Shown here one piece after another: positions 3,206-47,260 of a stretch of 64,000 nucleotides of DNA; within the stretch, counting starts at the first letter, position 1, and every line of letters starts with the position of its first letter. Source of the stretch: Thermoanaerobaculia bacterium (GTDB lineage: Bacteria; Acidobacteriota; Thermoanaerobaculia; UBA5066; Gp7-AA6); contig JBBRDK010000007.1 in the NCBI GenBank assembly GCA_038203955.1, forward strand, positions 299-64,298, read 5' to 3'. A model generated the notes under the pieces. The model made no database searches. It was given only the letters and a program-made list of their open reading frames with translations, and was not told the origin of the DNA. Made by a program: the position numbers and the translations under genes.

Positions 3206-3213
3206 GACGAAGA

Positions 3214-3280
3214 GTTCTCAGTAATCAGTTTTCAGTTTTCAGTGGAATCGACTGACGACTGAGAACTGACAACTGAGAAC
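3214..3280. repeat. Inverted pair of heptamer arrays (TCAGTNN x4 / NNACTGA x4) giving a hairpin with 30-nt arms and a 7-nt loop
   Basis: Left arm 3214-3243 gttctcagtaatcagttttcagttttcagt, loop ggaatcg, right arm 3251-3280 actgacgactgagaactgacaactgagaac. Hand pairing gives 25 Watson-Crick pairs, 2 G:U pairs and 3 mismatches, and every non-Watson-Crick position falls at the variable positions of the units. The right arm touches the SBP stop codon (3280-3282). Confidence 0.85.
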
Positions 3281-4386
3281 TACTCGGCCTTCCCGCTGCC
3301 GGGCTCGTACTTCCACGCCTTCTGGCGCTCCGCCGCGTCGGCGAAACGGGTATCGACGTACTCCGAGAACGGGATCTTGCGGTCGAGGACGCGGGTCTCG
3401 ATCATCAGGTCCCGGACCATGTCGAAGTCCGGCTTGCGCGGCGAGAGGCTCGTGTACGTGACGCGGTCGAGCGGCATCGTGAGCGCGTGGCGCAGGAGCG
3501 CGGGGGGCTGACGGTAGTAATAGCGGCCGACGAAATCCGCGGCGTGCTCCCGGTGGGGCTTGCCTTCGTCCAGCCAGAGGCCCGAGCGCGCGATCCCGTC
3601 GACGAGCACCTGGACGGCGTCCGGGCGCGTGTCGATGACGTCCTGCCTCACGACGACGACGCAGGACATGTAATCGGGCCAGTACTCGCGCGCCGGAAAG
3701 AGAATACGGCCGAAGCCGCCGATCTCCGCCTGGGCGGGATACGGCTCGCCCATGGAGAAGGCGTCGATCGCCTTCGCCGCGAGCGCCCCCGGGACGTCGG
3801 GCGGCGCCATCTCGATCATGCGCACGTTCTCGGGCGGGATGCCGTTGGCCTTCAGGGCCTTGAAGACGATGAGGCGTTCGTCGGAGAACCGGCTGGGAAT
3901 CGCGATGATGCGTCCCCGCAGGTCCTTTACGGAGTGGATCGGGCCATTCTTCTGGACGACGACGGCGCTTCCGTACCGATGCCCGAGATAGACGATTTTG
4001 ATCGGCACGCCCTGGGCGCGCAGCGCGATCGCCATCGGAGCCACCATGAATCCCACCTGCATGCGGTTGGAGATCAGCGCCTCCTTGATCTCCGGAAACC
4101 CCTGGAACATGCGGGGAATGAAGAGATTTCCCGCGAGCGAATACCTCGAGATGAAATCCGTCACAGGGCACGCGAGGTGGCAGGTCACCGGGATGTACGC
4201 CACGTTCAGCTTCCGCCGGGAAGGCGGCAGGCGCTGATTCACGATTGAGGACCAGTCGACGTTCAGCGCCATGTGCGCCCCGGTCAACGCGGCGGTCCAG
4301 AGGAGCGCGCCGGCGGCCAGCCGCCGGCCGATGCGGACCGGCCGGCGATCGCGGGTCACCTCAGGAGGCGGCGATGCCGCCGTCAT
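3280..4386 (-). CDS. ABC transporter substrate-binding protein, NMT1/THI5-like (NitT/TauT family)
   Basis: ORF track gives 3280..4404. I prefer ATG 4386 because it makes an ATGA overlap with the permease stop at 4383-4385. Signal/anchor-like AAGALLWTAALTGA followed by an SsuA/TauA-like body. Confidence 0.75.
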   Translation of the reverse strand: MTAASPPPEVTRDRRPVRIGRRLAAGALLWTAALTGAHMALNVDWSSIVNQRLPPSRRKLNVAYIPVTCHLACPVTDFISRYSLAGNLFIPRMFQGFPEIKEALISNRMQVGFMVAPMAIALRAQGVPIKIVYLGHRYGSAVVVQKNGPIHSVKDLRGRIIAIPSRFSDERLIVFKALKANGIPPENVRMIEMAPPDVPGALAAKAIDAFSMGEPYPAQAEIGGFGRILFPAREYWPDYMSCVVVVRQDVIDTRPDAVQVLVDGIARSGLWLDEGKPHREHAADFVGRYYYRQPPALLRHALTMPLDRVTYTSLSPRKPDFDMVRDLMIETRVLDRKIPFSEYVDTRFADAAERQKAWKYEPGSGKAE

Positions 4387-5150
4387 GCCGCGCGGAAGCC
4401 CCACCGGACGGAGCGCAGCCGCTCGACCCGGCGCATCAGAACGTTCAAGCCGACGCCGATCACGCCGATCAGGATCATCGCCGCGACGACGAGGTCATAG
4501 CGCTTCCCCGCGTTGCGCGAGTCGATCACGAGATAGCCGAGGCCGGAGTCCACGGCGATCATCTCGGCGGCGACGACGACGAGCCAGGCGATCCCGAGCG
4601 CGATCCGGAGTCCGGTCAGCACCTGCGGGAGGGCCGCCGGCAGCATCACCCGCCAGAGACGCTCGACCGGCGAGAGGTCGAAGTTGCGCCCGGCCAGCAG
4701 GTACATCGCCGGGATCCCCCGAACGCCGTTCATGGTCGCGACGACGATCGGAAAGAACGACGCTAAGAAGATCAGGAAGATCGTCGCGAAGTTCGAGATG
4801 CCGAAGAGGACGATCGAGACCGGGATCCAGGCGAGCGGGCTGATGGGCCGCAGCAGCTGGATCACCGGATTGACGGCCCGGGCGCCGATGGGCGACCAGC
4901 CGAGAAGGAGTCCGGTCGGGATCCCGAGCGCCAGCGCCAGCCCGTAGCCCGAGGCCACGCGGAAGAGGGAGTCGGCCGCATAGCGGAAGAGGACGCCGCG
5001 GCGCGCGAGCTCGGCGAACCCGGCCGCGACCGCCAGCGGCGAGGGAAAAACCGAAGTCTTCGTCCACCGGACTGCGACGTGCCAGGCGACGAGAGCGAAG
5101 ACCGCCGTCAGAGTCGGCCAGAGGATCCTTTCGAACGAGCGCGACTGCAC
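4383..5150 (-). CDS. ABC transporter permease (NitT/TauT family)
   Basis: 255 aa with multiple TM segments and a conserved loop AGRNFDLSPVERLWRVMLPAALPQ. Confidence 0.85.
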   Translation of the reverse strand: MQSRSFERILWPTLTAVFALVAWHVAVRWTKTSVFPSPLAVAAGFAELARRGVLFRYAADSLFRVASGYGLALALGIPTGLLLGWSPIGARAVNPVIQLLRPISPLAWIPVSIVLFGISNFATIFLIFLASFFPIVVATMNGVRGIPAMYLLAGRNFDLSPVERLWRVMLPAALPQVLTGLRIALGIAWLVVVAAEMIAVDSGLGYLVIDSRNAGKRYDLVVAAMILIGVIGVGLNVLMRRVERLRSVRWGFRAA

Positions 5151-5945: not shown

Positions 5946-6742
5946 GCCGCCTCCGCTTCGACGGGAGTCTGGTAGCCCCAGCTGGCGGCGGGAAGGCGCT
6001 CGAGCCGGCGCATGGCGAGGTCGAGGCAGACGCCGATGGCCCCGATCAGGACCATGCCCGCGACGACGAGGTCATATCGGTTGCCGGCGTTGCGCGCGTC
6101 GATGATCAGGAACCCCAGCCCCGAGTTGACGGCGATCATCTCCGCGGCCACCACGACGAGCCACGCGATTCCGAGGGTCAACCGGAGCCCGACGATCAGC
6201 TGCGGGAGGATCGCCGGGGCCAGAACCTTTCGAGCCAGGTCCACCGGAGAGAGCCCGAAGTTGCGTCCCGCGTTCCAATGCGTCGCGGTGACGCTTCCGA
6301 CCGCGTTCATGGCCGTGAGCGTCAGCGGGAGAATCGAGGCGAGGAAGATGATGAAAATCGCGGCGGGATCTCCCACACCGAACCAGAGTATCGCGATGGG
6401 AATCCAGGCGAGGGGAGAGATCGGCCGCAGCAGCTCGAGCAGAGGCGCGACGGCCATCTCCGCGCGGCGGCGCCAGCCGAGGAAGATCCCGAGAGGGACT
6501 CCGACGGCGACGGCCATCAGGTAACCCCACGTCACGCGGAAAAGCGAAGCGACGACGTGTTTGACGAGAAACCCCTTCTGCGCGAGCTCCGCGATCGCGG
6601 CCGCCACCTTCCACGGCCCCGGAAGAAGCGTATTTCCGGCGAGCGCAATCGCGGCGCTCCAGAGCACGACGAGCAGCACTAGCCCGGAGCACGAGACGAG
6701 GAGGCGTCCTCCGGCCGATGTCCGCGCGCGTCCTGGATCCAT
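5942..6742 (-). CDS. ABC transporter permease, second copy
   Basis: The track ORF runs to 6955, but its first ~30 residues are the reverse translation of tRNA-Asp. The first plausible start is ATG 6742 (MDPGRARTS...). Paralogous to 4383..5150 (AGRNFGLSPVDLARKVLAPAILPQ). ATGA overlap with the ATPase start. Confidence 0.8.
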   Translation of the reverse strand: MDPGRARTSAGGRLLVSCSGLVLLVVLWSAAIALAGNTLLPGPWKVAAAIAELAQKGFLVKHVVASLFRVTWGYLMAVAVGVPLGIFLGWRRRAEMAVAPLLELLRPISPLAWIPIAILWFGVGDPAAIFIIFLASILPLTLTAMNAVGSVTATHWNAGRNFGLSPVDLARKVLAPAILPQLIVGLRLTLGIAWLVVVAAEMIAVNSGLGFLIIDARNAGNRYDLVVAGMVLIGAIGVCLDLAMRRLERLPAASWGYQTPVEAEAA

Positions 6743-14252: not shown

Positions 14253-14879
14253 GTGCGGAGCCGTACAAGCGTATTCTGGCGGGACCGAGTGAAGCCGCAC
14301 TTCGCGCGCGCGTTGAGAGGTTCGGACCGCCCCTCCCGGCGGGATGGGAGCGGAAACGCGCTCTGCCGGGAATGCGGCAGTTCCGTGCGCCGGCCCCGGC
14401 GCACTTTCTGCTCGAAGGCCTGCGTCGACGCCCTGCTCGTCCGCACGTCGCCGTCCGCCGCACGGGACCGCGTGTTCGAGCGCGACCGCGGCCGCTGCGC
14501 GCGATGCGGACTCGATACCGAGGCCCTCAAGAGGAAGCTCGCTGCGATGCGTCGCAGGAATCCGGTTCCCGAAGCCCTCGAGGAGGCCCGCCGCCTTTCG
14601 ACGGGGTTCGAGCGCGCGGTCTTTCTTCGCGCGCGCCGTCCCTGGATCGCCATCCGCCGCGCTCTCTGGGAGGCGGATCACGTCGTGCCGGTCGTCGAGG
14701 GCGGCGGCGGATGCGGCCTGGATAACCTGCGCACGCTGTGCATTCCCTGTCACCACGCGGAGACGCGCGATCTCGCGCGCCGCCGCGCGGCCGCGAGGCG
14801 GGAGGCGGGAAGGACCGAGGGGCCGGGAGCCGAGCGACCAACGGGAGCGAGACGGCCGCGGTACTCCGCGGTCAACTAG
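14253..14879 (+). CDS. HNH endonuclease with an N-terminal CxxC...FCSxxC zinc ribbon
   Basis: RDRGRCARCG...WEADHVVPVVEGGGG...LDNLRTLCIPCHHAET. The last ~30 codons and the stop are encoded by the GAGGCGG units plus the 56-nt element. The exact start is uncertain. Confidence 0.75.
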   Translation: MRSRTSVFWRDRVKPHFARALRGSDRPSRRDGSGNALCRECGSSVRRPRRTFCSKACVDALLVRTSPSAARDRVFERDRGRCARCGLDTEALKRKLAAMRRRNPVPEALEEARRLSTGFERAVFLRARRPWIAIRRALWEADHVVPVVEGGGGCGLDNLRTLCIPCHHAETRDLARRRAAARREAGRTEGPGAERPTGARRPRYSAVN

Positions 14880-14880
14880 A
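14825..14880 (+). repeat. Conserved 56-nt element, copy 1
   Basis: gggagccgagcgaccaacgggagcgagacggccgcggtactccgcggtcaactaga. Differs at 1-2 positions from the copies at 50537-50592 and 58723-58778. Internal 8-bp hairpin GGCCGCGG-tact-CCGCGGTC. Preceded by GAGGCGG x2 (14795-14808). Confidence 0.9.
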
Positions 14881-14973
14881 ACGGTAATCGGTGCCGGGAG
14901 GTTCGCCGTCCGTCTCCCTCCCGCCCAGCGCCTCTTGAGCCCCTGATACCCTTGCGCGGCCGTCCCGGCACGC

Positions 14974-17900
14974 ATGAGCATTTCGGAACGCCTCTCGAAC
15001 CGTCCGCAGGCCCTCTTTCTTCTTCTTCTGGTGCTCTGTGCGGCGGGCGTCTGGTACGCGACCCGCCTTCCTTCCGCCATCTTTCCGACGGTGACCTTTC
15101 CCCGCGTCAAGGTGATCGCGGAAGGGGCGGAGGAGCCCGCCGCCCAGATGATTCCCGCCGTGACGCGACCGCTCGAGGAGGGAATTCTGAGGGTGCCGGG
15201 CATCGTGCGCGTGGTGTCCACGTCGACCCGGGGCTCGGTCGAGATCAGCGGCGAGTTTGCGTGGGGCACCGACATGCAGCTCGCGCTCCAGCGGGTGCAG
15301 GCCGAGATCGCGCGCGTGCGGCCGGATCTCCCTTCCGACACGCGGATCGATGCCGAGTGGATGAACACCGCCGTCTTCCCCATTCTGGGGTATGCCCTGA
15401 CCTCGGACACGCTCTCTCCGGCGGCCCTGCGGGAGCTGGCGGATTTCCAGCTGCGTCCCGCGCTCATCCAGATCCCGGGCGTTTCGCAGGTCCAGGTGCA
15501 GGGCGGTGCCGTCCGGGAGTTTCAGGTTCGCCTGGATCCGGAACGGCTCGGCGCGCGGCGGCTGTCGGCGAGCGATGTGGTCGACGCGATCCGGAAGAAC
15601 AACGTGCTGGTCTCGGCGGGGCTCGTCGAATCCAACCACGAGCTCTATCTCTCGCTCGTCACGGGAAAGCCCGCCGGAATCGCCGAGCTCGGCCGCATCG
15701 CGGTTGCCTCCCCCAGGGGCGGCGTCGCGGCGCCTCTCTCCCAGCTCGGCGAAGTCGTTGCCGCCGACGCCGTGTCTTACGTCCGCACGACAGCCGAGCG
15801 CCGGCCGGCCGTCCTCGTGAACATCGTCCGCCAGCCCGACGCGAGCACTCTCGCCATCGCGACGGGGGTGGAATCTCTTTTGAAGCAACACCCGGACCTC
15901 CTGCCAAAAGGGGCGCGCTGGTCCACGTTCTACGATCAGGCGGAGTTCATCCGGCATTCGGTCCGCGGGGTCCGGGACGCGATTCTGATCGGTGTGGCTC
16001 TTGCCGCGATCATTCTCTTTCTCTACCTTAGGAACTTCCGGATCACCGCCATCGCGGTCGCGACTATTCCGGTGACCGTGGCGATCGTTCTCCTCGCGCT
16101 CGGAGTCTCCGGCCAGACCATCAACCTCATGACGCTCGGCGGGATCGCGGCGGCGATCGGGCTCGTCGTGGACGACGCGATCGTCGTGGTCGAGAACATC
16201 GCACGGCACGCGGAGGAGCGCGTCTCTGCGAATCCCGTCCGGTCGGGGCTCGCGGAGGTGCTTCCGCCGCTAACAGGCTCGAGCCTCTCCACGGTCATCA
16301 TCTTCTTCCCCTTCGCGCTGCTCTCCGGCGTGGCCGGCGCGTTCTTCAAGCCGCTGGCCTTCACGATGGCGGTGGCGCTCGCCGTGTCCTATTTCCTCTC
16401 CGGGCTCGCCGTGCCGGCGGCGGCGGAGAAGCTGCGCGTCGCGTCCAGGGTCCGGGCGAAGAAGGAAAAAAAGCCTCCGCGGATCGCCCGCTTTTTCATC
16501 CGCCATCCTTCGATCGCGATCGCGGTGACCCTGGTCCTGCTCGGAGGCGGCTGGCTTCTCTACGGCGTAATCGGCTCGGATTTCCTGCCCGGCATGGACG
16601 AGGGCTCGATCATCCTCGACTACTGGACGCCGGCTGGAACGTCGCTCACGGACACCGACCAGATGCTCAATCAGGTCGAGAAGATCATCGTTTCGCTTCA
16701 CGACGTCGCCGGCTATTCCCGCCGGACCGGTGAGCAACTCGGCTTCTTCATCACGGAGCCGAACCGGGGCGACTACGTGATCCGTCTGAAGCCGAAGGGG
16801 GGAAGGCGCGGTGTCGAGGAGGTGATCGACGATCTCCGCGGGAGAATCTCCGCCGCGCAGCCGGCCGTGCACATCGATTTCGGGCAGCTGCTCGAGGACA
16901 ACATCGGCGACCTCGCCGGCGGCGTTCCCCAGCCGATCGACATCAAGCTCTACGGAGAGGACCAGACGGCTCTGCAGGATCGGGCCAGGGCCGCCGCGGC
17001 GATCCTGCAGACGGTCACCGGGGTCGAGGACGTTTTCGACGGCGTGACCGTCGCGGGACCGAAGGTGACGGTGCGCGTCATTCCCGAGGCTCTCCCGCGG
17101 TTCGGCGTCACCGCCGAGCGCCTGCACAACGAGGTCGAACCCGCCCTCGGAGGCACGCTGGCGGGGAACCTGCGGATCCGAGAGCGTCTCTACGACATCC
17201 GCGTGTTTTCCCGCCGGACCTCCGATGTCTCGCGGCTTTCCCTCCTGCCGATCCAGACCGGGTCCGGCGCTCTCGTGCCCCTCTCGCAGCTCGCGACGAT
17301 CTCGACGGGATCTCCGGAAGTCGAGATTCAGCGCGAGAATCTCCGCACGTATCTGGGCGTCACCGCGCGGCTGTCCGGCCGCAGCCTCGGAAGCGCGATG
17401 AGCGAGATCCAGCGGAAGCTGTCGCGGAGCCTGAACCTTCCGGCGGGAATGTCGCTCGGATACGGAGGCCTGTACGAACAGCAGCAGAGCTCCTTCAAGG
17501 GTCTGCTGGGCGTGCTCTTCGGCGGCCTGCTCCTCGTCGCCGTGGTCCTGCTGTTCGAGTTCGGCGACTGGCGTGCGCCGCTGCTGACGGTCATCATGGC
17601 GCTCACCGTTCTGACGAGCGTTCTCGGGTCGCTGATCGTGACCGGGATGACCCTCAACATCTCGAGCTTCGTGGGCGCGATCATGATGGTCGGTATCGTG
17701 GGGGAGAAGGCCGTGTTCCTGATACACGACGCGCGCGAGGAGCTGCGCAACGGAGTGCCCGTCGCCGACGCGTGGGCGGAGGCGTCGCGCAAGCGCGTCC
17801 GGGCGGTCATGATGACCATTTTCTCGACGGCCTTCGCCCTCGCGCCGCTCGCCATCGCGCTCGGGGAGGGCTCTCAGCTCCAGCAGCCGCTCGCGATCGC

Positions 17901-18042
17901 CGTCATCGGCGGGTTCATCCTCTCGAGCCCTCTCATTCTCCTGATCCTTCCCTCCCTCTACTGCTGGCTGGACCCTCACGGCCGGCTCGCGGGGCGCGAT
18001 CCCGCGGCGCGTTCCGCCGTTCTCCCGGAGGCCCGGCCGTGA
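14974..18042 (+). CDS. RND efflux transporter permease (AcrB/CzcA superfamily)
   Basis: 1022 aa. Typical N-terminus (RPQALFLLLLVLCAAGVWYATRLPSAIFP), 12-TM architecture with two large loops, and the LGGIAAAIGLVVDDAIVVVENI motif. Confidence 0.9.
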   Translation: MSISERLSNRPQALFLLLLVLCAAGVWYATRLPSAIFPTVTFPRVKVIAEGAEEPAAQMIPAVTRPLEEGILRVPGIVRVVSTSTRGSVEISGEFAWGTDMQLALQRVQAEIARVRPDLPSDTRIDAEWMNTAVFPILGYALTSDTLSPAALRELADFQLRPALIQIPGVSQVQVQGGAVREFQVRLDPERLGARRLSASDVVDAIRKNNVLVSAGLVESNHELYLSLVTGKPAGIAELGRIAVASPRGGVAAPLSQLGEVVAADAVSYVRTTAERRPAVLVNIVRQPDASTLAIATGVESLLKQHPDLLPKGARWSTFYDQAEFIRHSVRGVRDAILIGVALAAIILFLYLRNFRITAIAVATIPVTVAIVLLALGVSGQTINLMTLGGIAAAIGLVVDDAIVVVENIARHAEERVSANPVRSGLAEVLPPLTGSSLSTVIIFFPFALLSGVAGAFFKPLAFTMAVALAVSYFLSGLAVPAAAEKLRVASRVRAKKEKKPPRIARFFIRHPSIAIAVTLVLLGGGWLLYGVIGSDFLPGMDEGSIILDYWTPAGTSLTDTDQMLNQVEKIIVSLHDVAGYSRRTGEQLGFFITEPNRGDYVIRLKPKGGRRGVEEVIDDLRGRISAAQPAVHIDFGQLLEDNIGDLAGGVPQPIDIKLYGEDQTALQDRARAAAAILQTVTGVEDVFDGVTVAGPKVTVRVIPEALPRFGVTAERLHNEVEPALGGTLAGNLRIRERLYDIRVFSRRTSDVSRLSLLPIQTGSGALVPLSQLATISTGSPEVEIQRENLRTYLGVTARLSGRSLGSAMSEIQRKLSRSLNLPAGMSLGYGGLYEQQQSSFKGLLGVLFGGLLLVAVVLLFEFGDWRAPLLTVIMALTVLTSVLGSLIVTGMTLNISSFVGAIMMVGIVGEKAVFLIHDAREELRNGVPVADAWAEASRKRVRAVMMTIFSTAFALAPLAIALGEGSQLQQPLAIAVIGGFILSSPLILLILPSLYCWLDPHGRLAGRDPAARSAVLPEARP

Positions 18043-25575: not shown

Positions 25576-25776
25576 ATGGAAGGTCTGATGCAGGAACGAA
25601 GGAGCAAGATCGTCCGAGGCCCCCGGGGAATCCGGATCGCCCCTGCCGACCTCGAGAAGCTGCCGGAGCTCTCCAACAAGGGCTTCGCGGAGCAGCTCAA
25701 GCCGCCGAGCCCCCGGCACGAAGTGATCCGCTACTCGTCGCACGCGCGATTTCTCGCGCGCTGGAGCGCGCCGTAG
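25576..25776 (+). CDS. Small hypothetical protein (66 aa)
   Basis: MEGLMQERRSKIVRGPRGIRIAPADLEKLPELSNKGFAEQLKPPSPRHEVIRYSSHARFLARWSAP. G/C-rich third positions. A heptamer array starts 2 nt after its stop, as it does for well-supported genes. Confidence 0.4.
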   Translation: MEGLMQERRSKIVRGPRGIRIAPADLEKLPELSNKGFAEQLKPPSPRHEVIRYSSHARFLARWSAP

Positions 25777-25778
25777 AG

Positions 25779-25806
25779 TTCTCAGTTATCAGTTTTCAGT
25801 AATCAG
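25779..25806. repeat. Heptamer array TTCTCAG TTATCAG TTTTCAG TAATCAG
   Basis: Four units in register. Confidence 0.85.
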
Positions 25807-25829
25807 AAGACGCCGGGACCCGACTGGCT

Positions 25830-25872
<43 letters not shown>

Positions 25873-25876
25873 ACCT

Positions 25877-28800
25877 TCAGTCCTCGCTGAACCTCTCCGG
25901 CTCCGGCAGGATCCGCAGCGTCGTCTTCTGCGAGGCGTTTCCCGAGCGGATCTGGACGGAGTAAGTCCCCGGCGGGAGATACCGCTTGCGGGTCGCCCGC
26001 AGAGGATCCTCCAGCAGCCGGAAGAGGTCCGGATCGAGGGGCCTCTTCGGGCCCGCGGCGGGCTTCTCCTCGTCGGGTTTCGGAGGCTCCGCGTCGTCAT
26101 CCGCGTCGGTGGCCGCCGCAGGGGGCGCGGGAACGGGCGGGGGCGCGGCGTCCCCGGGCTTGACGGCCGCCAGCGCTTTTTCGCGGGCCTTCGCTTCCGC
26201 GGCGTCCGCGAGCTTCGGGTCCGCGGAGAGGTCGTACTCGATCACGTTGAATCCGGACGCGGGCGGACCGGCGAGCTCCTTCCAGGGACTCCCGTTCTCG
26301 TCCTGGATCGAGAGGGAAACGGGCTGGCCGGTCTTCGACCACCACGCGATGCGGACCGCCGGGTCGTCCCGGCCCCACGTGAAATACGGGTGGTCGCCGT
26401 AGCCTTTTCGCGCGGAGAGCTTGAGCGACTTGATCGGAAAGGCGACGAGCGGATCGGCCGGCGGGCCGTCTTTCATGCGGCGCAGAGGCGCGGCCTCGGC
26501 GACGTAGACGCTGCGTCCGTGGGTCGCGACCACGAGATCGCCCTCCCGCGGCTGCACCGCCACGTCGTGCACGCCCACCCTCGGCAGGCCTCCCGAAAGG
26601 GCCGTCCACGTCGCGCCGCGGTTGAGGGACGCGAAGACCCCGCCGTCGGTCCCGACGTAGAGAAGGTGCCTCGCTTTCGGATCTTCCCGGACCGTATTGA
26701 TCGGCTCGGCGGGAAGCCCGCCCGCCAGCGACTGCCAGGTCTTTCCGAAATCGGTCGAGCGGAAAAGGTACGCGCCGAAGTCGTCATCGCGGTAGCCGTT
26801 CTGCGCCACGTAAACGGTGCCCTCGTCGAAGGCGGACGCGACGACGCGGGTCACCCACTTGTCGCGCGCCATCCCTCTGGAGAGATCCGCCCAGGTGTTG
26901 CCGCCGTCCCGCGACCCCCACACGCGTCCCTCGTCCGTCCCCACGAAAAGGACGCCGAACCTCTTGGGCGATTCCGCGATGGAGGTAATGGTCCCGAAGG
27001 GAACGTCTCCCTGCCCGCGGTTCGAGGTCAGGTCCTCGGAGATCGCCGTCCACGTGTCGCCGCGGTCGAACGACCGGTACAGGCGGTTCGTTCCGTAATA
27101 CAGGATCTCGCGCGAATGGGGGGAAAGCAGAAACGGCGTGACCCAGTTGTAGCGGAGCGGCTTTTCCTTTTTCGCCGCCGAGAGCTCCGGCCGGGGCCGA
27201 AGCCGCTGCCTCTCGCCCGTCTTCAAGTTGATCCGGCCGGACGATCCGAACTGCCCCGCGGCGTAGATGATGTTGCCGTCCTTCGGGTCGATGACGACGC
27301 AGCTGCCGTCGCCCCCCCAGATCGACTTCCAGGCCTGGGGATCGGTCTTGCCGGGGCGGTACGTCGACGGCCCCCGCATCACGCCGTTGTCCTGCAGTCC
27401 GCCCACGATGTTGTACGGCTCGGCGTCGTCCACCGCGAGCGTCGTGAACTGTCCGACCGGGATGTTGTTCAGCTTCGTCCAGGTCTCGCCACCGTCGGCG
27501 GACATGTTGATCCCGCCGTCGTTGCCGATGACGACGCGCGACGGAGTCTTCGGGTCGATGAAGATCGCGTGATGGTCGCCGTGAACGCCGCGCTGGTCGA
27601 TGCCCTTGAAAGTCTTTCCCCCGTCGGTCGAAGCGACCATCGGGACCCCGCCGATGTAGATGTGATCGGGGTTGGAGGGGTCCGCGGCGATGCGCGCGAA
27701 GTAGTACCCGTAGGAGTAGAAGACCTTCTCGATCCGGCCGGCGTGCGTCTTCTTCCAGCTCGTCCCGCCGTCGTCGGTGCGATAGACCTCGAGCCCGACG
27801 ACCTCGTTCTCGAAGAGGTCCCGGTTGCTGTCCTTGAGGTACGCCAGCAGGTCGGCGACCGTGACCTTGCCGGCGGCCACGTCCTTCTTGAGCCTCGCGG
27901 CCTTCAGCGTCTTCGGAAAATCGTTGCGCTGGAGAAACCGCGAGACCGTGGCGTCGTCCAGCCGCGAGAAGGTCTCCGGGGTGAGCACCTTCAGCCGGCG
28001 CGGCGTCAGGTCGCCGGGGGGCGCCTCCTCGTCCAACGGCTCCGCGTCGGGCCGGAACGCCTGATTGTCGAGCACGGCGTAGAGGGTGTCGGGGCGCGAC
28101 GCCGCGATCGCGAGGCCGATGCGCCCGAGGGTCGCGCCGGAGGGCAGGGATCCCGTAAGGCGCTTCCACGTCCCGCCGCCGTCGGCCGATTTCCAGACGC
28201 CGCTCCCCGGCCCGCTTTCGAGAAAGTTCGCCGCCGTTCGCGCGCGCTCCCACGTCGCCGCGTAGACGACGTCCGGGTTGCGGGGGTCGGCCACGAGGTC
28301 GATGGCGCCCGTCCGATCGTCGACGAAGAGAGTCCGCGACCAGGTGCGTCCGCCGTCGGTCGTACGATAGACGCCGCGCTCCGAATTCTCCGTGTAGAGG
28401 TGGCCCATCGCGGCGACGAGCACGGTCTCCGGGCTTCGCGGATCGACCACGATGCGCGCGATGTGGTGCGTGTCCGTAAGGCCCAGGCTCTGCCACGACC
28501 GGCCGGCGTCCGTCGTCTTGTACATGCCGGTGCCCGCGTACGACGTGCGGCTCGAGTTTGCCTCGCCCGTGCCCACGTAGATCGTCCGGGCGTCTCCATC
28601 CGCCAGGGCGAACGCGCCGATCGTCAGCGTAGGCTGCGAGTCGAAGAGAGCGGTCCAGGTTCCCCCGCGGTTGTCCGTTCGCCACAGCCCTCCCGACGCA
28701 AACGCGACGACGAGCGAGTCGGGGTAATTCGAGGGCGCGGCGAGTTCCACCACCCGTCCTCCCTGGATCTCGGGTCCGACGTTTCGGAACTTGAGCGCGT

Positions 28801-29128
28801 TGAAAATCGACGCCTTCTCCATTGCGTCGCGCTGCGAGGCGGCCCGGGCGCGGGCGGCGGCATCCGTCCCCGTGCGGCGGGGGTGGAAGCGGCGCCGCTC
28901 CTCTTCCTTCGATAGCGGCTTGGCCTCTTCCCGGGGCAGTGGCTTCGCCGCTTCCCGGGGAAGTCGCTTGACCTCTTCCCGGGGCAGTGGCTTCGCCGCT
29001 TCCTCGGGCAGTCGCTGGGCCGCCTCTCCGGTTTTCGCGGGCGGCTTGTCCTGCGCCCTTACCGCGAGCGGCGACGCCAGAGCGGCCCAGAGCAACAGCC
29101 GCACCGAAGCCCTCAGGGTCTTGCGCAC
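25877..29128 (-). CDS. Sortilin/VPS10-like BNR (Asp-box) repeat protein, secreted
   Basis: 1083 aa with a signal peptide. Many SxDxGxTW Asp-boxes (TDNRGGTWT, TTDAGRSWQ, TTDGGRTWS, SADGGGTWK, STDGGKTFK, SADGGETWT, SRDGGNTWA, STDFGKTWQ). Confidence 0.85.
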   Translation of the reverse strand: MRKTLRASVRLLLWAALASPLAVRAQDKPPAKTGEAAQRLPEEAAKPLPREEVKRLPREAAKPLPREEAKPLSKEEERRRFHPRRTGTDAAARARAASQRDAMEKASIFNALKFRNVGPEIQGGRVVELAAPSNYPDSLVVAFASGGLWRTDNRGGTWTALFDSQPTLTIGAFALADGDARTIYVGTGEANSSRTSYAGTGMYKTTDAGRSWQSLGLTDTHHIARIVVDPRSPETVLVAAMGHLYTENSERGVYRTTDGGRTWSRTLFVDDRTGAIDLVADPRNPDVVYAATWERARTAANFLESGPGSGVWKSADGGGTWKRLTGSLPSGATLGRIGLAIAASRPDTLYAVLDNQAFRPDAEPLDEEAPPGDLTPRRLKVLTPETFSRLDDATVSRFLQRNDFPKTLKAARLKKDVAAGKVTVADLLAYLKDSNRDLFENEVVGLEVYRTDDGGTSWKKTHAGRIEKVFYSYGYYFARIAADPSNPDHIYIGGVPMVASTDGGKTFKGIDQRGVHGDHHAIFIDPKTPSRVVIGNDGGINMSADGGETWTKLNNIPVGQFTTLAVDDAEPYNIVGGLQDNGVMRGPSTYRPGKTDPQAWKSIWGGDGSCVVIDPKDGNIIYAAGQFGSSGRINLKTGERQRLRPRPELSAAKKEKPLRYNWVTPFLLSPHSREILYYGTNRLYRSFDRGDTWTAISEDLTSNRGQGDVPFGTITSIAESPKRFGVLFVGTDEGRVWGSRDGGNTWADLSRGMARDKWVTRVVASAFDEGTVYVAQNGYRDDDFGAYLFRSTDFGKTWQSLAGGLPAEPINTVREDPKARHLLYVGTDGGVFASLNRGATWTALSGGLPRVGVHDVAVQPREGDLVVATHGRSVYVAEAAPLRRMKDGPPADPLVAFPIKSLKLSARKGYGDHPYFTWGRDDPAVRIAWWSKTGQPVSLSIQDENGSPWKELAGPPASGFNVIEYDLSADPKLADAAEAKAREKALAAVKPGDAAPPPVPAPPAAATDADDDAEPPKPDEEKPAAGPKRPLDPDLFRLLEDPLRATRKRYLPPGTYSVQIRSGNASQKTTLRILPEPERFSED
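28919..29014. repeat. In-CDS tandem repeat, 2 x 48 nt (4 x 24 nt), encoding (K/R)xLPRE(E/A)xK octapeptides
   Basis: cttggcctcttcccggggcagtggcttcgccgcttcccggggaagtcg / cttgacctcttcccggggcagtggcttcgccgcttcctcgggcagtcg. Lies in the linker after the signal peptide. Confidence 0.8.
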
Positions 29129-31437: not shown

Positions 31438-31481
31438 AGGTAAGTTGAGAGTTGAGAGTTGAGAGTTCAGAGTTGAGAGTC
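31431..31481. repeat. Heptamer array GAGTTGA AGGTAAG (TTGAGAG)x3 TTCAGAG TTGAGAG
   Basis: Reverse complement of the array family at 25831-25872. The stop TGA (31435-31437) lies in the first unit. Confidence 0.9.
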
Positions 31482-31525: not shown

Positions 31526-33694
31526 CTATCCGCGCCCGACGAGGTCCTCTTCGCGTATCGGCAGCTTCCGTATCCGCCGCCCGGTGGCCGCGAAGACGCC
31601 GTTGGCAACTGCCGGGCCGATGGGCGGGACCGGTTGCTCGCCCATCCCGGAGGGTCCGGCGCCGCTCGCGATCAGGTGGGTTTCTACGGAGGGCATTTCT
31701 GAGAGGCGCAGGACCGGGAACTCGCGAAAGGAGTGCTGCTCGACGCGTCCGTTGCGGAACGTGATCTCGGTCTTCAATGCGGCGGAGAGCCCCCACGCGA
31801 TGGCGCCTTCGACCTGCGATTCCGCTCCCGAGAGGTTGATCACCTGACCGCAGTCGGCCGCGCAGACGACCCGGTGAACCCGCACGTCGCCTTCTTTTCC
31901 GACTGACACCTCCGCCACCTGCGCCATGTGGGTCCGCGCGTGGTAAACGTTGGCGGCGATTCCGCGGCCCACTCTCCGGCCGGGAATCGCGCGGAGAGGC
32001 GTCGACCACGAGGCCTTCTCCGCCGCGAGCGCAATCACCGCGGAAAGACGCCGCCGGTCGACCTCTCCCGATCCGATCTTGACGACCTCCGGGCTCTTCA
32101 GGAGGTCCAGCCGAAGCGCGACCGGATCGCGGCTCGAGGCCGCGGCGACTTCGTCCAGGAAAGATTCGCGGGCGAACACCGAAGGCGGGTAGTCGACCGC
32201 GCGCCACGCCCCCGTCGGCACGGGAGATCTCGCCACAGCCGACGCCGCGGAGAGCGCCGGGATCTCGTAGGGGCAGTCGAAGGCGCCCCACGGGTTCTCG
32301 CTGTCCGGGTCCACGTTGCCCTCCTCGTACGGCCCGAACATCGTCAGGTGGAAGCTCGTCATCTTGTGAGACCAGGCGATCAACCGGCCCGCGGGATCGA
32401 GTCCCGCCGACAGGGCGCTTATCGATGCCGGCTGGAACCGATCGTTCTCGAAGTCGTCCCGCCGGGTCCAGACGACCTGGACCGGACGCTTGATCGCGCG
32501 CGAGAGCTCGACCGCCTCCGGGACGTAATCGTGATCCAGCCGCCTTCCAAAACCGCCGCCGAGAAGCGTGACGTGAAGGGTGACGTTCTCGAGCGGGATT
32601 CCCAGCAGCTTCGCCGCCGCGGCCTGGGCTTCGTTCGGCGCCTGCGTCCCGACGCGAATCTCGCAGCGCCCGTCGCGGACGTCGGCGTAGCAATTCATCG
32701 GCTCGACGGGTGCGTGCGCCTGAAACGAGTAGCGATACTCCGCGGAGAGCCGGCGCGCCGAGCCGGCCAGCGCCGCCTCGACGTTTCCCACTTTTCGCGT
32801 CACATGCGCGCGGGCGGAGGCGGCTTCGAGCCGCTTCCAGTACGTCTCGGTCGAATCGGCGCGGTTCTCGCCTTCGTCCCAGTCCACCTTCAGCGCGTCG
32901 CACCCCTTCATCGCCGCCCACGTGTCATTGGCGACGACGGCGATCCCCGTCGAGAGTCGCACCACCTCGCGGACGCCGACGACGGCTTTCGCCGGGGCGG
33001 GATCGAAGCTCCGAGCGCGGCCGCCCGGGACCGGGCACCGGGAGACGACGGCGACGAGCGCGTTCGCGGGGCGGGCGTCGATCCCGTAGACGGCGGTGCC
33101 CCTCGCGATCGCGGGTCCTTCGAGCCGGGGGACGCGCGTCCCGAGCAGGCGATAGTCCTTCGCGTCCTTCAGGCGAGGGTTTTCCGGTACAGGCAGCGTC
33201 ACCGCCACCAGGACCAGCTCGCCGTACGCGAGGGAGCGGCCCGTGGCCGCGTGGACGACCCTGCTCTCCCGCGCGTGGCATTCCGCGGCCGGAACTGACC
33301 ACCGGCGCGCGGCGGCTTCGACCAGCATCTCCCGCGCGGCGGCCCCGGCCACCCGAAGCGCCTTCCAGCAATCCGAGACGCTGCTCGACCCGCTCGTCCG
33401 CATGCCCGGGTATTTCGGTCCCGGGGTCGCATGCTCGAGGACGATCGATTTCCAGTCCGCCTCGAGCTCTTCCGCGAGGATCATCGCGAGCGACGTCCGC
33501 GCGCCCTGTCCCATCTCCGAACGCGGCGCGATCAGCGTGACCCGCCCGTCCGCTCCGACCGTGATCCACTTGTTGGGCTCGAATCGCTTCGGCTTTCCGG
33601 CCGGCGCCTCCTGTGCCAGGACGGGGAGCTTCAGGAGGATCGCGGCCCCTCCGACGACGGCCGTCTGAAAAAACTGACGCCGGGAGGAGCTCAT
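31526..33694 (-). CDS. Molybdopterin-dependent oxidoreductase, IorB/aldehyde-oxidase beta-subunit-like, Tat-exported
   Basis: Start ATG 33694 (ATGA overlap with the 2Fe-2S gene) gives the twin-arginine signal MSSSRRQFFQTAVVGGAAILL. XDH a/b hammerhead and Mo-binding regions. Confidence 0.85.
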   Translation of the reverse strand: MSSSRRQFFQTAVVGGAAILLKLPVLAQEAPAGKPKRFEPNKWITVGADGRVTLIAPRSEMGQGARTSLAMILAEELEADWKSIVLEHATPGPKYPGMRTSGSSSVSDCWKALRVAGAAAREMLVEAAARRWSVPAAECHARESRVVHAATGRSLAYGELVLVAVTLPVPENPRLKDAKDYRLLGTRVPRLEGPAIARGTAVYGIDARPANALVAVVSRCPVPGGRARSFDPAPAKAVVGVREVVRLSTGIAVVANDTWAAMKGCDALKVDWDEGENRADSTETYWKRLEAASARAHVTRKVGNVEAALAGSARRLSAEYRYSFQAHAPVEPMNCYADVRDGRCEIRVGTQAPNEAQAAAAKLLGIPLENVTLHVTLLGGGFGRRLDHDYVPEAVELSRAIKRPVQVVWTRRDDFENDRFQPASISALSAGLDPAGRLIAWSHKMTSFHLTMFGPYEEGNVDPDSENPWGAFDCPYEIPALSAASAVARSPVPTGAWRAVDYPPSVFARESFLDEVAAASSRDPVALRLDLLKSPEVVKIGSGEVDRRRLSAVIALAAEKASWSTPLRAIPGRRVGRGIAANVYHARTHMAQVAEVSVGKEGDVRVHRVVCAADCGQVINLSGAESQVEGAIAWGLSAALKTEITFRNGRVEQHSFREFPVLRLSEMPSVETHLIASGAGPSGMGEQPVPPIGPAVANGVFAATGRRIRKLPIREEDLVGRG

Positions 33695-34158
33695 CGGGCA
33701 CCCCCGGCGGCGCTCGCGCGGGCAACCGCGCGCCGGATGCGCGGATAGCTCCCGCACCGGCAGACGTGCTCCGAGAAAACGGCGTCCACCTCGGCGTCCG
33801 TCGGCCTGGCGGATCTCTCGAGGAGTGCCGCCGCGGCCAGGATCATCCCGGGCTGGCAGTATCCGCACTGGGAGACGTCCTCTTCGAGCCATGCCCGCTG
33901 GCACGGGTGCGATCCGTTGCCGGAGAGCCCCTCGATCGTCGTGAAACGCCGGCCCGCCGCGGCCCGAACCGTCACCTGGCAGGACCGGACCTCCTTACCG
34001 CCTTCGAGGACCGTGCATGCCCCGCAGACGCCCACCCCGCATCCGTACTTGGTCCCGTTCAAGCCGAGCCGGTCGCGCAGGACCCACAGAAGCGGCGTAT
34101 CGGGCTCCACGTCCACTTCCCGGCGCGTCGCGTTGACCGTCAGACGAAACTTGGCCAT
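33691..34158 (-). CDS. (2Fe-2S)-binding small subunit (IorA/CoxS-like)
   Basis: 155 aa with CGVGVCGACTV and CGYCQPG...CRCG cluster motifs. Confidence 0.9.
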   Translation of the reverse strand: MAKFRLTVNATRREVDVEPDTPLLWVLRDRLGLNGTKYGCGVGVCGACTVLEGGKEVRSCQVTVRAAAGRRFTTIEGLSGNGSHPCQRAWLEEDVSQCGYCQPGMILAAAALLERSARPTDAEVDAVFSEHVCRCGSYPRIRRAVARASAAGGAR

Positions 34159-34274
34159 CCGTTACCTCCCGGAGCCGGCAGGCGGCCCCGATGAAGGCTT
34201 ACGGAAAAGCCGGGAGGAAAGTCCCGAGGTTTAGCCGAGGGTTTGGTGAGGAAGGGGGGTTGGGCGCTGGGCGC

Positions 34275-34307
34275 GGCCGTCTCGCTCCCGTCTGTCGCTC
34301 GGCTCCC
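34275..34307 (-). repeat. Partial, inverted copy of the 56-nt element
   Basis: ggccgtctcgctcccgtctgtcgctcggctccc matches the reverse complement of the first 33 nt of the element at 31/33 positions. The hairpin half is absent. Followed by CCGCCTC-type units at 34329-34348. Confidence 0.75.
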
Positions 34308-34362
34308 GTTTCCCGGCCCCGGCTCTGTCCGCCTCCCGCCTGCCGCCTAACCCCCTTCCGTC

Positions 34363-36588
34363 CTAAAGCAGCTTGTCCGGCGTGATGGGGAGGTCGCGGA
34401 TGCGCCGGCCGGTCGCGTGGTAGACGGCGTTGGCGACCGCCGCGGCGACTCCGGTGATTCCGATCTCGCCGATTCCCCGGCACCCGAGGGTGTTGATCTG
34501 AGGGTCCGGGCGGTCGATGAAATACGCCTCGATTCCCTCGACGTCGGCGTTGACCGGAACCGGGTAGTCGGCGAGGTTGTCGGTGACGGCCCGGCCGGTC
34601 CTCGGGTCGTAGGCCGTGTGCTCCATCAGAGCCATGCCGATACCCATCGTGACTCCGCCCAGGATCTGGCTGCGGCTCGTCTTGGGATTGAGCACACGCC
34701 CGTTGTCGATGACCGAGACGAACCGCGTCACGCGCACGCGCGGAAGAAGCGGATCGATCTTGACCTCGCAGAACTGGGCTCCGTACGAGTGAAACGAGTA
34801 GGCCTTCGATTTTTCGTCATCCAGCTTCACGGACGCCTCCGCGTCGATCGTGCCGCGGCCCGACGCCCGGATCAGCTCCTTCCAGTCCACGGACTTCGCG
34901 GGGTCGGCGGAGGACGCGAGGCGGCCGGCCGAAAGAACGGTGTCCTTTCCGGCGATCCCGGCGAGCGGAGACCGCGGATCCGAGGCGGCGATCTTCGCCA
35001 GCGCGTCGCGCATGGCCGCGCCCGCCTGGAAGATCGCCTCGCTGACGCTCGCGGTGGTGTTCGATCCGCCGGCGACCGGCGCCGCCGGGAAATCCGAGTC
35101 GCCAAGCTCGAGCCGGACGCGGTCCTGCGGGAGCCCGAGGGCATCCGCCGCCACCTGGGTGAGAACCGTGTAGGCCCCGGTGCCCAGGTCGTGCGCGGCA
35201 GTTCGGACCGTCGCGGTCCCGTCCGCGGCCAGGGAAATCCTCGCCGACGCCGGGAAGCGGTAGCCCGGATAGGTCGCCGTGGCCACGCCCCATCCGACGA
35301 GGAGATCCCCGTCGCGCATCGAGCGGGGCGCCGGGGTGCGCCGGGCCCAGCCGAATTTCTGAGCGCCGAGCGCGTAACACTCCTTCAGAAATTTGCTCGA
35401 AAACGGCTTTCCCGTGGACGGGTCCGTGTCCGCGTAATTTCGAAGGCGGAGCTCGATCGGATCAATCGAGAGCTTTTCCGCGAGCTCGTCCATCGCGGAC
35501 TCGAGCGCCCAGGTCCCGGGACACTCCCCCGGGGCGCGCATCGGCGTCGGCGTCGCCACATTGATCCGGACGAGCCGATGCGGAGTCTCGACGTTGGCGC
35601 ACGCGTACATGTGAGGGCTCGTTGAGTGCCCGCACGCCTCGATGTATTCGGACATAGGCGAGCTCGGCTGCAGGGTCTCATGGCGGATCGCCGCCAGCTT
35701 CCCGTCCGGCCACGCCGCGAGCGTCAGCGTCTGCGTCGTCGGCGGGCGATGCCCGACCGAGGAAAACATCTGCGCGCGGGTCAGGACGATCCGGACGGGC
35801 CGGCGGACCGCGCGCGCCGCCATCGCCGCGAGGATCGTGTGAGGCCACTGAAACCCCTTGCACCCGAACCCGCCTCCCACGAAGGGACAGATCACGCGTA
35901 CGTTCTCGCGGGGGATTCCGAACGCATCGGCGAGGATCGCGCGTGTCCCCATGACCCATTGCGTCGCGTCGTGGACGACGAGCCGGTCGCCCCGCCATTC
36001 CGCCACGGTCGCCGAAAGCTCCATCGGGTTGTGCGTCTCGACGGGAGTCGTGTACTTCGCCTCGATCCGCACGGTTCCGGAAGCGGCCAGAGCCGCCGGG
36101 ACGTCGCCCCGACGGTACTGGAGCTCCTCGCCGAAACTCTGTTTCGGAAAAGAGGATGGCGCGCGAGGATCCGCCGGATCGAGAACCGGCTCCTCCTTCT
36201 GGTAGGCGACGCGCACCCGGGAGGCCGCGAATCGCGCCTGCTGCAGCGTCCCGGCGACGACCAGTGCGATGGCCTGACCCGCGTAATGGACGACGTCGTC
36301 CTCGAAGGGCATCCGCTCCTCGCCGAGCATGCCGCCGGTGAAAAAGTCGGACTTCGGCTTGACCACCTTCGGCGCCGCCCCGCGGAGAAGGACCGCGAGA
36401 ACGCCCGGCGCCTCCCGCGCGGCCTTCGTGTCCATCGAGACGATCCGTCCTCTCGAGATCGTGCTCGTCACGAGAACTCCATGGACGAGCCCTTCGGGAC
36501 GGTTCTCCGCCGAATAGCGCGCCTCGCCGGTGACCTTCAACCGTCCGTCGACGCGATCGATCGGTTTTCCGACGGAAGAATCGCTCAT
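34363..36588 (-). CDS. Xanthine dehydrogenase family molybdopterin-binding large subunit
   Basis: 741 aa. N-terminal VGKPIDRVDGRLKVTGEARY and the GGGFG motif (VGGGFGCKG). Typical CoxL/XdhA architecture. Confidence 0.85.
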   Translation of the reverse strand: MSDSSVGKPIDRVDGRLKVTGEARYSAENRPEGLVHGVLVTSTISRGRIVSMDTKAAREAPGVLAVLLRGAAPKVVKPKSDFFTGGMLGEERMPFEDDVVHYAGQAIALVVAGTLQQARFAASRVRVAYQKEEPVLDPADPRAPSSFPKQSFGEELQYRRGDVPAALAASGTVRIEAKYTTPVETHNPMELSATVAEWRGDRLVVHDATQWVMGTRAILADAFGIPRENVRVICPFVGGGFGCKGFQWPHTILAAMAARAVRRPVRIVLTRAQMFSSVGHRPPTTQTLTLAAWPDGKLAAIRHETLQPSSPMSEYIEACGHSTSPHMYACANVETPHRLVRINVATPTPMRAPGECPGTWALESAMDELAEKLSIDPIELRLRNYADTDPSTGKPFSSKFLKECYALGAQKFGWARRTPAPRSMRDGDLLVGWGVATATYPGYRFPASARISLAADGTATVRTAAHDLGTGAYTVLTQVAADALGLPQDRVRLELGDSDFPAAPVAGGSNTTASVSEAIFQAGAAMRDALAKIAASDPRSPLAGIAGKDTVLSAGRLASSADPAKSVDWKELIRASGRGTIDAEASVKLDDEKSKAYSFHSYGAQFCEVKIDPLLPRVRVTRFVSVIDNGRVLNPKTSRSQILGGVTMGIGMALMEHTAYDPRTGRAVTDNLADYPVPVNADVEGIEAYFIDRPDPQINTLGCRGIGEIGITGVAAAVANAVYHATGRRIRDLPITPDKLL

Positions 36589-36700
36589 CGTTCTCCTCGA
36601 AGGGCCTGTCGCAACGGGCCGGCGGCCCTCGTCTCGCTTCTCGTTTGTCCCCCGCGTGAGCCTGACGTTATCAAGAGTTCCACGCGCCCCCCCGGCGTCT

Positions 36701-37858: not shown

Positions 37859-37913
37859 GCCCGGACCGGGATTCCCGTGACCAGGCCCGGTTCGCAACCG
37901 CCTGATCCCTCCC

Positions 37914-37980
37914 GACTCTCAACTCTCAACTCTGAACTGTCGACTCGGAACGCTGAACGCTCAACGCTGAACGCTCAACC
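37914..37980. repeat. 9.5-unit heptamer array passing through three unit families in one register
   Basis: GACTCTC AACTCTC AACTCTG AACTGTC GACTCGG AACGCTG AACGCTC AACGCTG AACGCTC AACC. Confidence 0.9.
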
Positions 37981-38029
37981 CGTCTCCTTTCTGCTATCCT
38001 CCACCGCCCGCGGAGGAGCTCGGCGTTAC

Positions 38030-43508: not shown

Positions 43509-43542
43509 GCGCGGTTGAGCGTCGAGCGTCGAACGTTGAGCG
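43505..43542. repeat. Heptamer array TTGAGCG (cgg) TTGAGCG TCGAGCG TCGAACG TTGAGCG
   Basis: The stop TGA (43506-43508) lies in the first unit. Inverted relative to 43597-43631. Confidence 0.85.
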
Positions 43543-43596
43543 TTTTGTAAAAAGACGAGGAATAGATACGGAGAGCCGAGGTCCGCGCTTCTTCCC

Positions 43597-43631
43597 TACG
43601 CTTAACGCTGAACGCTTTACGCTCAACCCGC
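43597..43631. repeat. Heptamer array TACGCTT AACGCTG AACGCTT TACGCTC AACCCGC
   Basis: Five units. Ends 13 nt before the start of the next gene. Confidence 0.8.
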
Positions 43632-47077: not shown

Positions 47078-47080
47078 GAA

Positions 47081-47129
47081 AGTTGACAGTTGACAGTTGA
47101 GAGTCGAGAGTCGAGAGTCCAGAGTGGAG
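47081..47129. repeat. Heptamer array AGTTGAC x2, AGTTGAG, AGTCGAG x2, AGTCCAG, AGTGGAG
   Basis: Seven units in register, starting 3 nt after the radC stop. Confidence 0.9.
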
Positions 47130-47256: not shown

Positions 47257-47260
47257 CCTC

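Follow-up and report, generated by a model that had tools for sequence, protein, structure and literature searches.

A short clade-specific interspersed repeat family in Thermoanaerobaculia (Acidobacteriota), often flanked by heptamer arrays

Analysis of a 64,000-nt stretch of a Thermoanaerobaculia bacterium genome (GenBank assembly GCA_038203955.1, contig JBBRDK010000007.1, positions 299-64,298; the whole stretch is referred to as the window) showed that a 56-nt element present in it several times belongs to a real, previously undescribed, clade-specific interspersed repeat family in Thermoanaerobaculia (Acidobacteriota). A literature search found the element sequence in no paper and no description of repeats in Thermoanaerobaculia. 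By analogy, the family would be classed with the repetitive extragenic palindromic (REP) sequences and the bacterial interspersed mosaic elements (BIMEs), and we lean, with some reserve, towards a lineage-specific family of short, REP/BIME-like interspersed intergenic repeats that is read by a putative sequence-specific trans-acting factor.

The degenerate 56-mer matches the window exactly at 14825-14880, 50537-50592 and 58723-58778 (copies 1, 2 and 3), always on the plus strand, as a first-pass annotation of the sequence had reported, and no match was obtained in 100 dinucleotide-preserving shuffles, in line with a chance expectation of none. The copies vary only at two pyrimidine (Y) positions within the tetranucleotide at element positions 15-18, which reads CAAC in copy 1 (14839-14842), TAAC in copy 2 (50551-50554) and CAAT in copy 3 (58737-58740) and lies between the GGGAGC(C)GAG(C)..AC half-modules. 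Alignment and blastn show that similarity among the copies exceeds the 56 nt, by ∼8 nt on the 5′ side and ∼10 nt on the 3′ side (NCGGKAATCG), and for copy 1 family-level similarity spans 14817-14890. An inverted, 3′-truncated copy of 36 nt (34272-34307, minus strand; element positions 1-36) contains module A, the linker AGAC (34285-34288) and module B as far as the 5′ arm of the hairpin. This partial copy had also been noted before, and blastn extends it to 35 identical positions of 37 over 34272-34308 (E = 2e-11). A further degenerate piece proposed at 36631-36649 was recovered neither by blastn-short (E ≤ 10) nor by the family profile (E ≤ 1) and is not counted here.

Across the family, the module spans ∼50 nt and opens with the half-site GGGAGCCGAGCGAC, which a free linker of 4 nt separates from a second, related half-site, GGGAGCGAGAC; a GC hairpin of 8 bp and then AAC complete it. 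The consensus GGGAGCCGAGCGAC-CAAC-GGGAGCGAGACGGCCGCGGTACTCCGCGGTCAACT-NGA is the same in all nine genomes, window included, and its two half-sites, GGGAGCCGAGCGAC and GGGAGC-GAG-AC, are related direct repeats on either side of the linker. The hairpin, GGCCGCGG-TACT-CCGCGGTC, occupies element positions 30-49 and is present, as predicted, in all three full window copies (14854-14873, 50566-50585 and 58752-58771, plus strand); it has eight pairs, one of them a G.T that pairs on the plus strand only, and a 4-nt loop, and each arm contains the palindrome CCGCGG, the two lying one helical turn apart. The firmly conserved core runs from position ∼5 to ∼52, and positions 5-7 and 34-52 lie outside the search pattern used to collect copies, yet are 90–100% conserved. 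Positions 15-18 (72–95%) and 53-56 (42–78%) are held more weakly and count as free. Conservation falls at the 5′ edge, where upstream columns are only 30–75% conserved, and fades on the 3′ side through TCGGGAATCG. The significance once attached to the length of 56 nt as eight times seven is numerology, given this core. The linker varies between loci and even between strains: in contigs that encode a 2Fe-2S protein identical to the one beside the partial copy, its linker is CGAC or deleted (L086, ∼838-841; L087, ∼12), and the CGAC version produces a CGACCGAC tandem.

The size and range of the family were gauged by scanning GTDB, with each species represented by a single genome, for the pattern GAGCGACNNNNGGGAGCGAGACGGCC, which requires an exact 22-nt core; copy numbers and breadth are lower bounds, and the pattern itself fixes positions 8-14 and 19-33. 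At least 79 matches were obtained, and all but one of those listed lie in at least eight species-level metagenome-assembled genomes (MAGs) labelled Thermoanaerobaculia/Acidobacteriota, three of which are 75–90% identical to the window genome over shared genes. The sole outlier among the matches listed, in a Halobacteriaceae MAG (L049, 3033-3058), shares the 26-nt pattern and no similarity beyond it, and is a chance match. In total, 85 copies were collected at the fetched loci, and a profile search of the fetched DNA added ∼25 further diverged copies, mostly in tandem or inverted clusters. Copies are mostly single; clusters are chiefly head-to-tail, with some convergent blocks such as that at L014, where three plus copies stand opposite three minus copies between convergent genes, and similar blocks at L012, L048 and L072. 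Module B, the hairpin half, repeats alone at L012 and L024. The extra copies in the fetched flanks, together with those in the window, suggest a density of about one site per 16–60 kb. IMG/VR contained no match to the element, and a phage origin was rejected on this basis.

Copies at shared sites evolve as slowly as amino-acid-determining codon positions. At 13 orthologous sites where two species both carry the element, positions 1-7 and 34-52, which are free of search bias, are 95.6% identical (323/338), compared with 96.6% at codon positions 1+2 and 74.4% at codon position 3 of the neighbouring genes, and with 46–52% in the immediately adjacent 60-nt flanks. The genes of the nine genomes that share the consensus differ by 11–25%. 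At the same shared sites the linker is ∼13% divergent by a hand count over ortholog pairs, and close species pairs retain locus-specific linkers (CAAG, CCAC, CAGC). That an asymmetric ∼50-mer, free only in its linker, is kept constant to the letter leads us to infer a conserved, sequence-specific trans-acting reader. Alongside this constraint there is turnover: relatives that carry the element elsewhere lack copies 2 and 3 in their orthologous Zincin_1/BNR and truB-rpsO spacers, and the loci L010 and L040 differ by presence or absence at two adjacent sites, of which one borders a small inversion. In that inversion (L010 1790-2250 versus L040 5400-5830) a small membrane-protein gene and its flanks are turned around between two related MAGs, and the L040 copy lies exactly at one of its edges.

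Most copies are found behind genes. Among 60 classifiable copies, 23 lie between convergent genes, 19 between co-directional genes in sense, 14 between co-directional genes in antisense and only four between divergent genes. Both orientations relative to genes are therefore represented, with about two thirds of the classifiable copies in sense behind a gene; the uniform plus orientation, which holds for the full copies of the window, is a local accident. Sense copies start at a median of 27 nt past the stop codon, and in five cases the stop codon takes the place of the first GGG (GTGAGCC, CTGAGCC, GTAAGCC). The distance to the gene is 35 nt for the 5′ end and 89.5 nt for the 3′ end (p = 0.001). 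Orientation shows no bias with respect to local GC skew (39/72), which speaks against a replication-oriented motif of the Chi or FtsK-orienting polar sequence (KOPS) kind. The neighbours are diverse housekeeping genes, including those for penicillin-binding proteins, MutS2, RecR, L21, ABC transporters, TonB receptors and others, and in ∼600 kb around the 85 copies no neighbour family recurs beyond orthologous pairs and no transposase-like neighbour was found. Two candidate partnerships were discarded in the course of this comparison: the HNH gene beside copy 1, as neither HNH nor any other family recurs next to copies, and a composite transposon, an idea taken from inverted copies that flank a gene at L070, where the enclosed gene encodes the class A penicillin-binding protein PBP1a.

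REP-type repeats are abundant in bacteria, and their function and spread are debated. Like the REP and BIME sequences of Enterobacteria and Pseudomonas, including the REPIN-RAYT systems of paired REPs and their REP-associated tyrosine transposase (RAYT), the element is short, high-copy, GC-rich and hairpin-bearing (background in PMC3733652). It likewise lies downstream of genes in both orientations, is rare in divergent, promoter-bearing spacers, forms clustered mosaics with other motifs, has a cross-species consensus and persists at orthologous sites. The putative reader may be a protein that binds DNA or RNA, perhaps an enzyme of the recombinase or transposase-like kind, and more likely recognises sequence, as DNA or as single strands, than an RNA fold. 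New copies would most plausibly arise by recombination or template switching between flanking GGGAAWC arrays, or through that putative enzyme. For sense copies located in 3′ untranslated regions (3′ UTRs), the GC hairpin would act as a 3′-end barrier, by analogy with REP hairpins.

Several observations weigh against a REP/BIME-like family with a dedicated reader. No clean insertion boundary was found, as the whole heptamer spacer differs between filled and empty sites; because of this, and since no clean 56-nt insert is seen, mobility is deduced from presence and absence alone. Repeated gene conversion or independent re-insertion into favoured spacers could mimic constraint, and the most distant pairs place the element at different distances from the stop codon; the locus-specific linkers kept between close species argue against frequent conversion tracts spanning the element. 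No trans-acting factor emerged from the flanking DNA: a crude regular expression for the HUH motif with an upstream YH..R matched 0 of the 622 called proteins of the fetched loci, with the result that no RAYT was found near the element by this means, and no transposase recurs next to copies. Copies at L031 and L061 sit 3′ of the canonical terminator of the upstream gene, so that a 3′-UTR role cannot hold for all copies. The resemblance to REPs is also incomplete. The foot of the hairpin lacks the GTAG of REPs and is flanked instead by GAGAC...AACT on the plus strand (AGTT...GTCTC on the minus strand); unlike REPs, the element is mostly non-palindromic, with a 29-nt 5′ arm holding two direct half-sites; and it occurs singly or head-to-tail rather than as the inverted dimers of REPINs.

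Of the competing explanations, the one that fares best, which we regard as possible but rather unlikely, is that the element is a passive higher-order heptamer unit, a chance mosaic of blocks such as GGGAGCC, GAGCGAC, GACGGC. and GTCAACT that has no reader and no function and was multiplied and dispersed through slippage as well as unequal crossing-over and gene conversion among arrays. Its sub-blocks do resemble array units of the window (GAGCGTT/GAGCGTC, GACGGCT, AGTTGAC, GGGAAWC), it forms tandem and inverted arrays as heptamers do, module B can repeat alone, the GGGAAWC units beside most copies could supply homology, and spacers turn over wholesale. This model does not sit well with a ∼50-nt consensus that is the same in nine genomes with such divergent genes, with unbiased positions that are far more similar at shared sites than third codon positions (95.6% versus 74%), or with the linkers kept locus by locus between close species, which speak against frequent conversion. 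The 56-mer itself has no 7-nt periodicity and is not a simple repeat. The converse proposal, that the element is the core of the heptamer system, finds no support in the window, where Tandem Repeats Finder detects ∼30 period-7 arrays and the element is present in only four spacers; a (GGGAAAC)4 array at 38894-38921, for example, has no element adjoining it.

We consider it improbable that the family represents a classical non-autonomous transposon, that is, a miniature inverted-repeat transposable element (MITE) or the end of an insertion sequence (IS), moved by a transposase encoded elsewhere in the genome. Such elements, e.g., Correia elements and IS-derived MITEs, share with it a small size, a lack of coding capacity, multiple copies and an intergenic location, and can alter the 3′ ends of genes, as copy 1 does in the HNH open reading frame (ORF). 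Many near-identical copies, presence and absence at orthologous sites, inverted copies in some clusters and short-read contigs that break inside the element would all fit. In contrast to MITEs, terminal inverted repeats are lacking: GGGAGCCGAGCG at the 5′ end does not complement GGTCAACTNGA at the 3′ end, and the internal 8-bp hairpin is the one inverted repeat present. A search for target-site duplications, which the first-pass annotation had suggested as a check, was carried out on 21 copies without adjacent arrays and revealed none, with at most 3 of the 21 sharing any 4-mer at any boundary offset; apparent boundary repeats in the full copy set correspond to the CGGGA of flanking arrays. 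In the ∼600 kb of flanking DNA, no transposase-like neighbour, no HUH motif by the crude screen and no parent IS was found, inverted copies enclose housekeeping genes such as that for PBP1a at L070, and copies are conserved at orthologous sites. Thus, of the earlier suggestion of a MITE-like mobile unit, a repeat unit that is gained and lost stands, and a MITE in the strict sense does not.

It appears very unlikely that the copies are genes for small structured RNAs, or a cis-acting motif that functions through its RNA fold. The stable GC hairpin, whose single G.U pair forms only on the plus strand, the strong sequence conservation and the roughly two thirds of classifiable copies that lie in sense behind a gene, and are probably transcribed, would be compatible with an RNA. 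In Rfam (4227 families), the whole window yielded only tRNA-Asp at 6878 at gathering score, and no family was assigned to the element at gathering score or at E ≤ 10; in the region 58650-58900 searched at E ≤ 10, the sole match overlapping the element was STnc380, whose 11.6 bits fall short of the gathering score (60). The three full window copies showed neither a sigma-70-like promoter nor an intrinsic terminator, and the sequence upstream of the element is not conserved. Folded together with short flanks, the element gives weak z-scores (−0.05 to −1.75), with nothing beyond the hairpin. Pairing in the hairpin stands at 96.4% over 106 distinct copies, with no compensatory changes and no improvement on shuffles, a test that has little power at such low variation. 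In addition, hairpin-breaking variants persist in JALYUA (L032, L052), and 14 of the 33 copies between co-directional genes are antisense. Taken together, these results do not bear out the small RNA gene that had been proposed. An intrinsic terminator was likewise rejected, as there is no U-tract and canonical terminators are rare nearby and equally frequent before and after the element (3 versus 3 of 39). The same holds for a remnant of group II intron domain V/VI: since positions 20-26 repeat positions 7-12 directly and do not complement them, no domain V helix is possible, and Rfam gave no match.

That the family is protein-coding, as a recurrent C-terminal tag or mini-ORF, can be practically dismissed: copy 1 does end the HNH ORF and ∼11 further ORFs run through a sense copy, but they use all three frames (4, 3 and 4 cases), which refutes the idea, most copies are intergenic, a third are antisense to their neighbours, and the 3′ TAG is not conserved, with A at position 54 in only 42% of copies. 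The element is non-coding, as had been concluded before from the window alone.

A variant subtype at L005 and L059 has a tail that carries CCACCA (GGTCCACCA). At L059 (JBDTRB010000119.1, 1000-1360, minus strand) two copies with the 3′ end GGTCCACCAAC lie within a tandem duplication of ∼157 nt, on the 5′ side of an intact tRNA-Arg(TCT). A 24-nt 5′ fragment of this tRNA (GCCCGTAGCTCAGATGGATAGAGC) adjoins one copy without a gap, the other copy precedes the tRNA, and one copy has an internal 22-nt duplication. A tRNA-derived origin, an idea raised by the fragment and by a loose likeness of GCCGAGCG to the D-loops of type II tRNAs, was rejected after ARAGORN and the Rfam tRNA model gave negative results for the element; ARAGORN reported only tRNA-Asp in the window and the separate tRNA-Arg beside the L059 copies.

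In the window, gene calls were made with a codon-usage caller trained on long ORFs of the window and of relatives, and they match the public calls of a related contig. The HNH ORF at 14253-14879 takes its TAG stop and the 18 codons before it from copy 1, much as the first-pass annotation had described, and residues 138-172 of this ORF form a genuine HNH domain; an AcrB-family gene (14974-18042) begins 93 nt 3′ of the copy. The HNH ORF has a weak codon-usage score, and its C-terminal ∼35 residues are translated heptamers and element. Copy 2 lies between the convergent Zincin_1 (50101-50466, plus strand) and BNR/sortilin (50695-53772, minus strand) genes, and copy 3 is antisense to both truB and rpsO in the truB-rpsO spacer of a truB-rpsO-pnp cluster. 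The partial copy lies in the spacer between a MoCoBD molybdopterin-subunit gene (34363-36588, minus strand) and a 2Fe-2S-subunit gene (33691-34158, minus strand), in sense with both. The element is an assembly breakpoint for short reads in this lineage. Logan contigs of SRR19962011 and SRR24807095 from the same organism (L083, L084 and L085), which also occurs in ERZ1407737, end inside copies 2 and 3. The idea of an insertion polymorphism at the population level was dropped, as the contigs retrieved by way of identical neighbour proteins stop within the element.

All window copies are preceded by AGGCGGN-type units, and GGGAATC units follow copies 2 and 3, both as described before. The units 5′ of copy 1 are GAGGCGG heptamers at 14795-14810 (plus strand), with equivalent AGGCGGN units at ∼50513-50536 and 58693-58706. 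Copy 2 is followed by TC-GGGAATC-GAAAG at 50593-50606. Copy 3 has one GGGAATC on its 5′ side (58716-58722) and, on its 3′ side, three GGGAATC (58781-58801) and two GGGAAAC units (58808-58821), which make up a semi-conserved, G-rich 3′ extension at 58781-58821 (plus strand). The association with heptamer arrays, thought to be constant, holds in the window and loosens in the family as a whole, where in-phase GGGAAWC units directly adjoin about half of the copies and 21 of 82 copies have none nearby. The 3′ array tends to finish in GAARR, and the upstream side is enriched for a GGGGCC-like motif (30 versus 7 of 82). Copy 2 lies at the apical part of a 254-nt hairpin formed by complementary GAGCGTT/AACGCTC arrays (−127.7 kcal/mol, z = −5.3), and the folding of the spacers around copies 1 and 3 is unremarkable.

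Heptamers also fill many other spacers. About 17 window spacers behind genes are made up of heptamers in tandem (AGTTNTC, GAGCGTT, TCAACTC, CCGCCTC and others), among them 3208-3282, 25772-25886, 31440-31481, 37898-37985, 43510-43630, 47078-47257, 50467-50501 with 50674-50716, 53780-53878, 54794-54950 and 60710-60827. The arrays often begin at the stop codon and often occur in complementary pairs, and relatives carry other arrays at the same sites. Two further kinds of repeat were observed in coding DNA of the window. Direct repeats at 4394-4640 versus 5971-6217 (247 nt) and at 4801-4878 versus 6378-6455 (78 nt), 73–77% identical, offset by 1577 nt and coding, probably mark tandem paralogous genes, and a 24/48-nt tandem repeat of 4.8 copies at 28917-29031, near the 5′ end of a 1083-aa ORF (25877-29128, minus strand), probably encodes a repetitive stretch of the protein.

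Small dispersed repeats of Nostoc punctiforme, imperfect palindromes of 21–27 nt, are reportedly nested in heptamer arrays in a similar way, according to work attributed to Elhai et al. in 2008; they are said to vary in presence between relatives and to encode no enzyme, in a low-GC cyanobacterium, and their sequence is unrelated to that of the element. The closest counterpart of the flanking arrays is found in Xanthomonas campestris and X. axonopodis pv. citri, each with ∼185 (GGGAATC)n arrays per genome (Rehm et al. 2015, PMC4692102). These arrays are intergenic, start on average 28 nt after the upstream ORF, lie on both strands with few in divergent spacers and with convergent inverted pairs, vary in length between relatives and have been assigned no function (PMC4692102). 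GGGAATC is identical to the heptamer flanking the element, and the distribution is nearly the same; in contrast, the arrays of Xanthomonas and those of Nostoc (GGGGAYT) are simple-sequence repeats for which that study describes no embedded conserved 50-mer (PMC4692102). Under its definition of a heptamer simple sequence repeat (at least two units, at least one GGGAATC; tandem GGGANTN), the copy 3 flank at 58781-58801 qualifies and the 56-mer does not. The shared GGGAATC could reflect convergence or a mechanism common to both phyla.

A comparison with the CGTC-REPs led to a mixed picture (Di Nocera et al. 2013, PMC3733652). These are defined there by a CGTC tag, an 8–9 bp stem that opens with two A-T pairs, a 4–5 nt loop and a CCA tail. 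The 8-bp stem and 4-nt loop are common to both, neither has a known dedicated transposase, and the minus strand of the element contains CGTC overlapping the 3′ foot of the hairpin (CCGCGGC-CGTC-TC). The element's stem is all G/C with one G.T and lacks the two A-T pairs, its tail is AAC, with CCACCA only at L005 and L059, and going by the text the tag is apparently on the opposite side, so that the element falls outside the definition; CGTC-REPs were not reported from Acidobacteria (PMC3733652).

In practical terms, the element matters for MAG annotation, as it breaks short-read assemblies and rewrites gene 3′ ends, as seen where the HNH ORF takes over 18 codons and its stop. What sets the family apart is its occurrence in an uncultured acidobacterial lineage, its long, asymmetric, letter-perfect core and its single free linker; the constraint pattern and the link to heptamers are intriguing and do not demonstrate a new mechanism. 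The family supplies a defined sequence as bait for the putative reader, and it could connect two unexplained phenomena, REP-like repeats and heptamer arrays. One speculative extension, to which we give only a slim chance, is that the 50-nt module serves as the docking site of a putative clade-conserved machinery that builds, remodels or uses the heptamer spacers behind genes, either a recombinase or polymerase that would lay down arrays or an RNA-binding factor that would read a 3′-UTR code. If true, it would provide the first handle on why Thermoanaerobaculia, Xanthomonas and Nostoc fill their spacers with heptamer arrays.

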